Shown here: positions 13,043 to 15,902 of the stretch, one piece after another
How the letters are laid out: each line of letters opens with the position of its first letter
Numbering within the stretch: the first letter of the stretch is position 1
Source: Escherichia coli
GTDB taxonomy: Bacteria > Pseudomonadota > Gammaproteobacteria > Enterobacterales > Enterobacteriaceae
Assembly (NCBI RefSeq): GCF_017348835.2
Contig: NZ_CP071375.1
Length of the DNA: 64,000 nucleotides
Direction: 5' to 3' (one strand)
The notes under the pieces: model-generated
The model's database searches: none
Seen by the model: only the letters and a program-made list of their open reading frames with translations
Told to the model about the DNA's origin: nothing
Made by a program: the position numbers and the translations under genes

Positions 13043-13522
13043 TTACCAGATGGCAGGTTGTGGTACTGCTAGCGAAGTGAGTATTTCACGTAATGTCTCC
13101 CCATCAGGAAACACGAGTTCCGGGGCAATCTCAAACAGCGGCCACAGCATAAAGCCGCGATTCTTCATATCATAATGCGGAACGGTGAGTCGTTCGGTAT
13201 TAATGGTTTCATTACCAAACAACATGATATCAAGATCGAGTGTGCGCGGTCCCCAGCGTTCAGCTTTACGGACGCGACCTTGCTGCAATTCAATACGCTG
13301 AGTGTGATTGAGTAACTCTTCAGGTGCAAGAGAGGTTTTCAGCGCCACGGCTGCGTTTAAGTAATCGGGTTGATCTTGCGGCCCCAGCGGTGGGGTGCGG
13401 TAAAACGAAGAAACGGCAAGAATGTGGCTTTCAGGGATATCGCCTAATGCTTTCAAGGCAGCATTGACCTGCTCCAGCGGAGAGGCCAGATTGCTGCCTA
13501 TGGCAATATACGCCACTGTCAT
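13043..13522 (-). CDS. folK: 2-amino-4-hydroxy-6-hydroxymethyldihydropteridine pyrophosphokinase
   Basis: 159-aa [37 protein letters not shown]... Confidence 0.95.
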
Positions 13523-14916
13523 GCGGTACCCTCACGACGTGGTGCGCGTTTGCGTGGACGACGAGTACGACGACGCGGTGACGGTTCTTCATCCAGCTCG
13601 TTGAGCATCCCTTTTTGGTCTGGTGGCGCGGAAACCTGGAACTCACCCCACCATTTCACCAGACGCTGCAATTCAGCGTTACGTTCAACTTCAGCTCGCA
13701 AGGCCAACAGGTCATAAGCCGCACGGAACTTAGGATGCTCCAGCAGTTTCCATGCGCGTTTACCCTGACGTCGGGACATACGCAATTGCAACTGCCAGAT
13801 ATCGCGGGTTAACGTCGTCAGGCGTTTCGGGATTGCCAGTGAACGGCAGGCTTCGTCCAGCACGTCGTTCATCGCCAGCGCGAAAGCGTCGTGATAGGTC
13901 AGGCCGCTTTCCTGGGCGATCTTCTGTGCCGTCTCCAGCAGTGGGTACCAGAACATGGCGGCAAACAGGAACGCCGGGTTCACGCGCATATCGTTATGGA
14001 TACGCGTATCGGTATTCTTCAGCACCTGTTCAATGATCCGCTCCATCGGGCTGTCGCCATTTTCCGTGAAGTAGCGGGTAATGGTCGGGAACAGCGGCTG
14101 GAACAGATGATATTCACACAGCAGCTTATAGGTTTCGTAACCGTAGCCCGCTTGTAGCAGTTTAAGCGATTCTTCAAACAGGCGTGCTGGTGGGATATCG
14201 TTCAGCAGGGTAGCGAGGCGAGGGATCGGTTCTGCGGTTTCCGGGCTGATGCGCATACCCAATTTGGCGGCAAAACGTACCGCGCGCAGCATACGTACCG
14301 GATCTTCACGGTAGCGCGTTTCCGGGTTACCAATCAGACGGATAACACCGTCCTTCAGATCCTTCATACCGCCAACGTAATCACGGACGGTAAAATCCGC
14401 TACGCTGTAATACAGGCTGTTGATAGTAAAATCGCGGCGCTGGGCGTCTTCTTCGATGGAGCCGAAAATGTTGTCGCGCAGCAACATGCCGTTTTGCCCG
14501 CGTTGGGAAGTCGTGCGGTCGCTGACGTTACCTTCGTGGTGTCCACGGAAGGTCGCAACTTCGATAATCTCCGGGCCAAACATCACATGAGCCAGACGGA
14601 AACGGCGACCCACCAGGCGGCAGTTACGGAACAGTTTGCGCACCTGCTCAGGCGTGGCGTTAGTGGTTACGTCAAAATCTTTCGGCTTTTTGCCGAGTAA
14701 CAGGTCGCGCACGCCGCCGCCAACCAGCCAGGCTTCGTATCCCGCTTTATTGAGCCTGTACATTACCTTCAGGGCATTTTCACTGATATCTTTGCGGGAA
14801 ATAGCATGCTGCTCACGCGGGATCACCGTCACCTGTGGACGGGCGACTGCCTGTTCAGCCTCGCTTTCCTCGCGGCTTAGCACCTTGCGGCAAAAATTAG
14901 CGACTCGGGTAAAAAT
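13519..14916 (-). CDS. pcnB: Poly(A) polymerase I
   Basis: The ORF track gives 472 aa from an upstream ATG (14937); the established PcnB start is a non-canonical AUU giving a 465-aa protein (…[17 protein letters not shown]…). Overlaps the folK start by 4 nt. Confidence 0.9.
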
Positions 14917-14975
14917 AGTACACCTCGGTAGTGTCAAACATCATTCAGGACAAAAAAATAGCGGCTAATCATAGC

Positions 14976-15902
14976 TCAGCATGACGCATTTGAGAATGTT
15001 GAATTTACAATTGCCGACTCAGGCACGGCGGTCAGCGTCCAGTTTTTGACGGCTGACTGAAGGATTTGCTCGACGCTGAAATCCTGCCAGTGTGCTTCTG
15101 CCTGCTGCCCCAGAAATTGAAGTGCCGCGATTAGTACCGGGCGTGGATCGCCTTTCGGCAACGCAGGCGCATGATTCTGCTTGGAAAGTTTAGCGCCTTG
15201 TGGATTAAGCGCCAGCGGCAGATGAATGTAATCTGGCACTTTCCAGCCAAAAAGCTGGTACAGCGAGATTTGCCGCACTGTCGGTTCGATCAAATCTGCC
15301 CCGCGGACAATTTCGCTCACACCCTGGAAGTGATCATCCACCACCACCGCCAGGTTATAGGCAAACAAACCATCACGGCGATGAATAATAAAATCTTCCC
15401 GTGCCAGTTTTTCGTCGGCGTGAATAATGCCTCGCAGCAGGTCAGTAAACTGGGTGACCGGATGCTGCTGGCGGATACGCACTGCGGCGTTGTCTGGTCC
15501 ATGATGCAATTCCCGGCAATGACCGTCGTAAATACCGCCAATGCTTTGAATACGTGCACGCGTGCAGGTGCAGTAATAACTTAGTCCTTGCTCATGTAAC
15601 CAGGCGAGTGCTTCGCGATAGGCGTGGTGACGTTGCGATTGCCAGAGAACATCGCCGTCCCAGTGCAGGCCGTAATGTTCCAGCTGGCGCAGGATAGTTT
15701 CTGCGGCACCGGGAACTTCACGAGGCGGGTCGATATCTTCTATACGTACCAGCCAGCGACCTTGCCGGGCGTGAGCCTGCAAATAGCTGCCAAGCGCAGC
15801 AATCAGAGAACCAAAATGAAGCTCGCCGGAAGGAGAGGGGGCGAAGCGGCCAATATAGTGTGTGTCTGTCATCTCTTTGAACAAAAAATAAGGCGGGAGC
15901 AT
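14976..15902 (-). CDS. gluQ: Glutamyl-Q tRNA(Asp) synthetase
   Basis: 308-aa ORF with a class I aaRS-like HIGH region (…SGELHFGSL…); upstream of dksA. Confidence 0.9.

Follow-up and report, generated by a model that had tools for sequence, protein, structure and literature searches.

Translation of pcnB, the gene for poly(A) polymerase I (PAP I), almost certainly starts at the AUU codon at nt 14916–14914 (minus strand) of the window, i.e. of the whole 64,000-nt stretch of Escherichia coli DNA that was analysed (contig NZ_CP071375.1). The codon is preceded at a distance of 4 nt by the Shine-Dalgarno (SD) sequence GAGGUG, and the product is 465 aa long (Table 1). The AUU start of pcnB is an ordinary feature that was published in 2002 and is well known. 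The window and strain K-12 share a 100% identical PcnB protein and the same 90-nt stretch running from the gluQ stop codon to codon 10; with protein and initiation region identical, the start in the window is the same, known feature. AUU is reported as the experimentally determined start codon, which limits expression and the change of which raises it; PMC2939334, PMC3561954, PMC5499595, PMC9764084 and 10.1101/063800 cite Binns & Masters (2002, Mol Microbiol 44:1287) for the AUU start. An earlier note on this DNA had called the AUU an established inefficient start that keeps PAP I levels low, and the literature citing Binns & Masters agrees.

Table 1. Coordinates of features at the pcnB locus, numbered along the window.
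Feature	Position (nt)	Strand	Remarks
pcnB CDS, best supported	13519..14916	(-)	ATT to TGA, 1398 nt, 465 aa, poly(A) polymerase I
pcnB stop/folK start overlap	13519..13522	(-)	ATGA, 4 nt; TGA 13521-13519, ATG 13522-13520; direct reading
In-frame ATG, Met52	14761..14763	(-)	Historical start of Liu & Parkinson 1989; source of 414-aa form
In-frame GTG, codon 12	14881..14883	(-)	Source of 454-aa mis-annotated form; without SD (+0.5 kcal/mol)
pcnB codons 2-10	14887..14913	(-)	With the ATT, codons 1-9 (14916-14890) near-frozen at synonymous sites
ATT (AUU) initiation codon	14914..14916	(-)	In frame, seven codons below the TTG; direct reading
Shine-Dalgarno GAGGTG	14921..14926	(-)	4 nt before the ATT; fully complementary to CACCUC, 16S rRNA 3' end
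In-frame TTG opening the 472-codon ORF, not the start	14935..14937	(-)	Without SD pairing; 26/80 species
In-frame TGA stop	14941..14943	(-)	Two codons above the TTG; upstream limit of the open pcnB frame; codon listing
Sigma-70-like promoter, predicted	14968..14996	(-)	-35 TTCTCA, 17-nt spacer, -10 TATGAT (14973-14968)

The ORF list and the RefSeq annotation agree on the gene order dksA-gluQ-pcnB-folK, on the minus strand. Over a region of 1801 nt around the pcnB start the window is 100% identical to strain PE164 of E. coli; the RefSeq CDS coordinates in that strain and in K-12 match 13519..14916. The window derives from a different strain than K-12, with folK and the flanks slightly divergent, but it carries pcnB at the same locus and in the same gene order, without substantive difference. 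In a profile search, PcnB matched the NCBIfam equivalog NF008634 with 996.3 bits (curated cut-off 702 bits), residues 1–464 aligning to profile positions 1–468 of 469. The Pfam families PF01743 (PolyA_pol), PF12627 (PolyA_pol_RNAbd) and PF12626 (PolyA_pol_arg_C) were all found above their gathering scores, so that the protein has the nucleotidyltransferase head, the RNA-binding region and the arginine-rich C-terminus. Residues 28–442 are 100% identical to the poly(A) polymerase chain in PDB 3AQM; as the crystal structures of this enzyme start at residue 28, they are uninformative on the N-terminus. Of 5426 complete E. coli genomes, all but two (5424) carry the locus, and in three E. coli records gluQ-pcnB-folK is situated on a record labelled as a plasmid. 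The gluQ-pcnB-folK neighbourhood is conserved more widely, similarity to GluQ and FolK flanking the diverged pcnB loci described below. The 4-nt overlap of pcnB with folK, pointed out previously, was seen directly in the sequence and recurs across species, as ATGA in 39/79 and as GTGA in 35/79 (the folK start alternates between ATG and GTG). For the neighbouring gluQ (14976–15902, minus strand) the records disagree on the start: the K-12 record has a gene of 927 nt (308 aa), equal to the longest ORF, and PGAP records have one of 897 nt (298 aa) starting MTDTHYIG.

Both the ORF list and a reading of the codons show an ORF of 472 codons (13519..14937, minus strand) that opens with TTG. The earlier note had described this ORF correctly in its length and extent but had given its first codon as ATG; the codon at 14937–14935 is TTG, and the slip probably came about because the tool that lists the ORFs shows every start codon as M. 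Two ATGs are found near the TTG (14944–14942 and 14941–14939), both outside the pcnB frame. By chance alone an ATT would readily turn up seven codons into an ORF; it becomes meaningful only through its conservation and the placement of the SD sequence. For each in-frame candidate, the energy of pairing between the preceding 20 nt and the 16S rRNA 3' end was calculated. For ATT 14916 it is -7.2 kcal/mol (GAGGUG 14926–14921, 4-nt spacer), compared to +0.4 kcal/mol for TTG 14937, +0.5 kcal/mol for GTG 14883, and a weak -3.9 kcal/mol for ATG 14763. A comparison of SD placement at the two upstream candidates, which the note had named as a means of deciding between them, thus favours the ATT. Its placement of the conserved N-terminus at the AUU, seven codons downstream of the ORF start, also stood, as SD position, conservation and the boundary of NF008634 all agree with it: the first position of this profile falls on residue 8 when the protein is numbered as 472 aa, and on residue 1 when it is numbered as 465 aa. 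In the literature the pcnB ribosome-binding site has been called 'poor', in contrast to the good 6-bp SD match computed here.

Conservation of the start region was examined by scanning one genome per species with peptides from the body of PcnB, leaving the start unconstrained, which gave 80 loci from Enterobacteriaceae. At the position of the E. coli ATT every one of the 80 species has ATT, and GAGGTG is present at -10 to -5 in all of them, the 4-nt spacer between the two occurring in 10 different sequences. No ATG, GTG or TTG is found between the nearest in-frame stop and the ATT in 43/80 species, and in 9/80 there are not more than seven sense codons in this interval. In the other species, the upstream in-frame starts are TTG at codon -7 (26 species), TTG at -10 or -11 (nine) and ATG at -7 (two). 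The alignment of the leader has noisy columns above -12 and contains indels with lengths not divisible by three, none of which occur from the SD sequence onward. Residues 1–13 are identical in all 79 complete sequences, with every nucleotide change being third-position synonymous, and changes across codons 1–15 are likewise all of this type, residue 14 excepted. As read from the alignment, this is the signature of translation from the ATT or from directly after it.

The two lineages with an upstream ATG are Salmonella enterica subsp. diarizonae and arizonae (L023 and L024), in which an in-frame ATG lies seven codons above the ATT (at ~1480–1503), without an apparent SD sequence. An AUU masked by an ATG, as had been envisaged for the window, is literally true of these loci, and not of the window. 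Further into the gene, codon 29 (14830–14832, minus strand) is ATG (Met) in 72/79 species, but the window has GTG (Val) and the reference locus of E. coli (L004) has GTA. A poorly conserved acidic linker, codons 16–28, precedes this codon.

Within E. coli there is very little variation. An identical 90-nt stretch (gluQ stop to codon 10) is carried by 5397/5424 genomes, and the 34-nt core with the SD sequence and the ATT is exact in 5420/5424, the remaining four having one mismatch each. An ATG in place of the ATT was not seen among the 5424 genomes, including the four with a mismatch.

More diverged homologues were sought by scanning metagenome contigs for the back-translated peptide FTRVANFC, with the invariant CGA at codon 4 excluded and the start codon left free. 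Six of the matches are true pcnB homologues, with 67–79% identity to E. coli and synteny of gluQ-pcnB; all are flanked by gluQ, and also by folK where the contig extends that far. The start-aligned codon is ATT in three, ATA in two and ATC in one, GAGGTG plus 4 nt is kept in 6/6, and in 2/6 an in-frame stop lies 5–6 codons upstream with no canonical start between. Two further genomes, retrieved by a representative-protein search (one of 63% GC, the other of 29% GC and 1.08 Mb), both show GAGGTG-NNNN-ATT. Taken together, the 88 loci have 85 ATT, 2 ATA, 1 ATC and no canonical start. Since ATT, ATA and ATC are synonymous Ile codons, their interchange alone would also fit an internal Ile, and this reading is excluded only by the stops found upstream and by the lack of canonical start codons. 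AUA, AUC and AUU have been measured as one class, initiating at 1–2% of AUG (Hecht et al., 10.1101/063800); because these AUH codons form one weak class, the interchange of ATT, ATA and ATC preserves weakness. That the class is kept in all 88 Enterobacterales-type loci suggests, at the level of sequence comparison, selection for weakness and not drift.

Phylogenetic hints of an AUU start of pcnB in other Proteobacteria have been reported (PMC3561954). For five loci at 44–48% identity, the starts called by gene finders are GTG, TTG or ATG, and SD pairing is weak or absent, which speaks against a universal AUH start in PcnB. The AUH start looks like a trait restricted to Enterobacterales, in a sample that is small and with gene finders that cannot call AUH. 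The 63%-GC genome, CP043324.1 (L101, 801–2298), has pcnB called in two pieces (316 and 150 aa), suggestive of a frameshift or a pseudogene, and its gene caller placed the pcnB start at an upstream TTG instead of the ATT.

A start further downstream, at GTG 14883 (454 aa) or ATG 14763 (Met52, 414 aa), and whether as the main product or as a second isoform, is very improbable. The history of the Met52 start, assigned by Liu & Parkinson in 1989, is given in PMC2939334. A Met52 version, i.e. an N-terminally shorter PAP I, might come from the internal sigma-S promoter pS1: PAP I gives two bands in Western blots, the pS1 transcript begins downstream of the AUU (PMC2939334), and Met52 has the weak SD sequence noted above. 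However, pS1 activity is confined to stationary phase in the absence of ppGpp (PMC2939334), and codon 52 is Leu in 56/79 species, for which reason Met52 was rejected as a conserved alternative start. The GTG of codon 12 is invariant in 79/79 species, and the reported removal of a 17-residue leader (PMC9764084) would leave the mature N-terminus near it, but it is without SD pairing. Against both codons, residues 1–13 are 100% conserved with synonymous changes only and hence translated, and both the curated model and published mutagenesis (PMC2939334) place the start at the AUU.

Even less probable is initiation at the in-frame UUG 14937, giving 472 aa with the ATT as an internal Ile, which is how gene callers that take the longest ORF would read the locus: UUG is a canonical start codon from which the ORF is open, with a U-rich tract upstream; it is named as the pcnB start in the introduction of PMC3561954 (citing Mohanty & Kushner 1999), a length of ~473 aa is still quoted in PMC9764084, the 472-aa form is widespread in databases, and the synonymy of ATT, ATA and ATC for Ile accords with it, but the codon lacks upstream SD pairing, TTG is in place in only 26/80 species with 43/80 having no canonical in-frame start at all, some loci have a stop 4–6 codons before the ATT, the leader has frame-breaking indels, the seven extra residues lie outside the NF008634 model, and published experiments assign the AUU (PMC2939334, PMC3561954).

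A consensus scan found a single sigma-70-like promoter upstream of pcnB, with 9/12 consensus matches and a transcription start site predicted near 14961. Its sequence, gcTATGATtagccgc, recurs across many species, and it is probably the published promoter pB. As the TTG and the ATT both lie downstream of the predicted transcription start (~14961), transcript structure cannot discriminate between them. A full-text literature search for pcnB together with retapamulin or ribosome profiling returned no useful start-site data, and pcnB is absent from the text and supplements of the tetracycline-profiling paper that mapped E. coli starts, in which only NUG codons were tested.

The consequences of a weak start can be pictured as follows. 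The good six-base SD sequence positions the 30S subunit at the pcnB start, where the AUU in the P site mismatches the initiator tRNA anticodon at the third position. IF3 would disfavour such complexes, its role on pcnB mRNA being deduced from general knowledge of IF3 and AUU (PMC5499595), so that pcnB expression would be subject to IF3 discrimination. Only a small fraction of ribosome loadings would be productive, so that a cell would hold no more than a few tens of PAP I molecules. The UUG that lies in frame seven codons up is best seen as an accident of the leader that only lengthens the apparent ORF. PAP I is present at ~30–50 molecules/cell and is toxic in excess (PMC3561954). The enzyme marks RNAs for degradation and determines how many copies of ColE1-type plasmids a cell carries; with an excess being lethal, a ceiling on its expression is physiologically important.

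In E. coli, infC (encoding IF3) and pcnB are the only two genes with confirmed non-canonical starts (Hecht et al., 10.1101/063800). The pcnB gene has the attributes of the AUH-start class, i.e. an AUH codon where the conserved protein begins, the lack of a usable canonical start above it, and an SD sequence at functional spacing. It resembles infC, the start of which belongs to the same class and is conserved as AUU or AUC across species (PMC5499595), in that AUU, AUA and AUC interchange among the orthologues studied here and are never replaced by a canonical codon. The two differ in regulation. IF3 discriminates against the start codon of its own gene, which creates an autoregulatory loop, whereas no feedback is known for pcnB, the weak codon of which is thought simply to cap expression. 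They differ also in abundance, IF3 being plentiful (5488 molecules per cell; PMC5499595) and PAP I scarce (~30–50; PMC3561954). A second parallel is cyaA, in which a sub-optimal UUG start is likewise conserved across Enterobacterales and sets low expression (PMC5499595). Unlike the pcnB codon, which is outside the canonical set and cannot be called by standard gene finders, UUG is accepted as canonical by IF3.

Annotation of the gene varies accordingly with the pipeline. It had been expected that automated annotation would mis-set the start; this does not hold for RefSeq, in which all seven records examined (including PE164, K-12 and the most divergent E. coli match) annotate the 1398-nt CDS from the ATT, but it does hold for other pipelines, which give 472, 454 or 414 aa. 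RefSeq places the start at the ATT because the curated model NF008634 begins at that residue. Versions of the exact protein with 472 aa (from the TTG), 454 aa (from the GTG) and 414 aa (from Met52) are all present in public collections, where the 472-aa, the 454-aa and the correct 465-aa forms are each found on at least 1000 contigs. Gene finders limited to ATG, GTG and TTG will mis-start pcnB, and for residue numbering, tagging and N-terminal analyses of PcnB the 465-aa form should be used. A 2022 paper describes PAP I as a protein of 473 residues with a cleaved leader of 17 residues (PMC9764084). Residues 1–10 (14887–14916, minus strand) are perfectly conserved in Enterobacterales, yet they are among those reportedly cleaved off (PMC9764084); if removal of the leader is true, a strictly conserved N-terminal peptide of PcnB is discarded after translation.

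The sequence around the AUU start is also constrained at the nucleotide level. Mean synonymous entropy across codons 1–9 is 0.049 bits, compared to a gene mean of 0.953, and this is the lowest value of all 457 nine-codon windows in the gene (rank 1). The SD sequence and codons 1–9 together (14890–14927, minus strand) form a near-invariant nucleotide block in the 80 Enterobacteriaceae species. More distant Enterobacterales have synonymous differences at 5/9 of these codons. The comparison hints at an RNA-level or nucleotide-level constraint around the weak start within Enterobacteriaceae.

A hairpin is predicted at 14906–14927 (minus strand; -4.5 kcal/mol), in which the SD sequence (CG-GGUG) pairs with codons 2–4 (UACC-CG) and the AUU is located in a loop of 9 nt. 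If formed, this hairpin could account for the 'poor' ribosome-binding site of the literature. Its pairs are all invariant or changed on one side, the covariation term of the alignment fold amounts to just -0.4 kcal/mol, and, as both arms are invariant, covariation says nothing for or against the structure. The hairpin is broken in one diverged metagenome locus (L097), shuffled sequences fold at least as well as the E. coli pcnB leader (z = +1.1), and an Rfam search of the pcnB start region gave no family match. That the block from the SD sequence to codon 9 (14927–14890), within which both arms of the hairpin lie, is a dedicated translational control element, with PAP I regulated and not merely capped, is doubtful; such an element could, for example, tune SD access, sense IF3 or bind a trans-acting factor.

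An out-of-frame mini-ORF (14897–14944, minus strand; ATG 14944 or 14941) that runs across the SD sequence and the ATT was considered and rejected as a conserved peptide. Its frame has an ATG in only 39/80 species, the ATGs differ, and the middle portions are shifted by indels, so it is probably not functional as a peptide. Further downstream, a second patch of low synonymous variation covers codons 36–47 (14775–14811, minus strand), with codons 41–43 (CGC AAA GAT) shared by 79/79 species. This patch precedes the Met52 ATG and falls where the internal sigma-S promoter pS1 has been reported.
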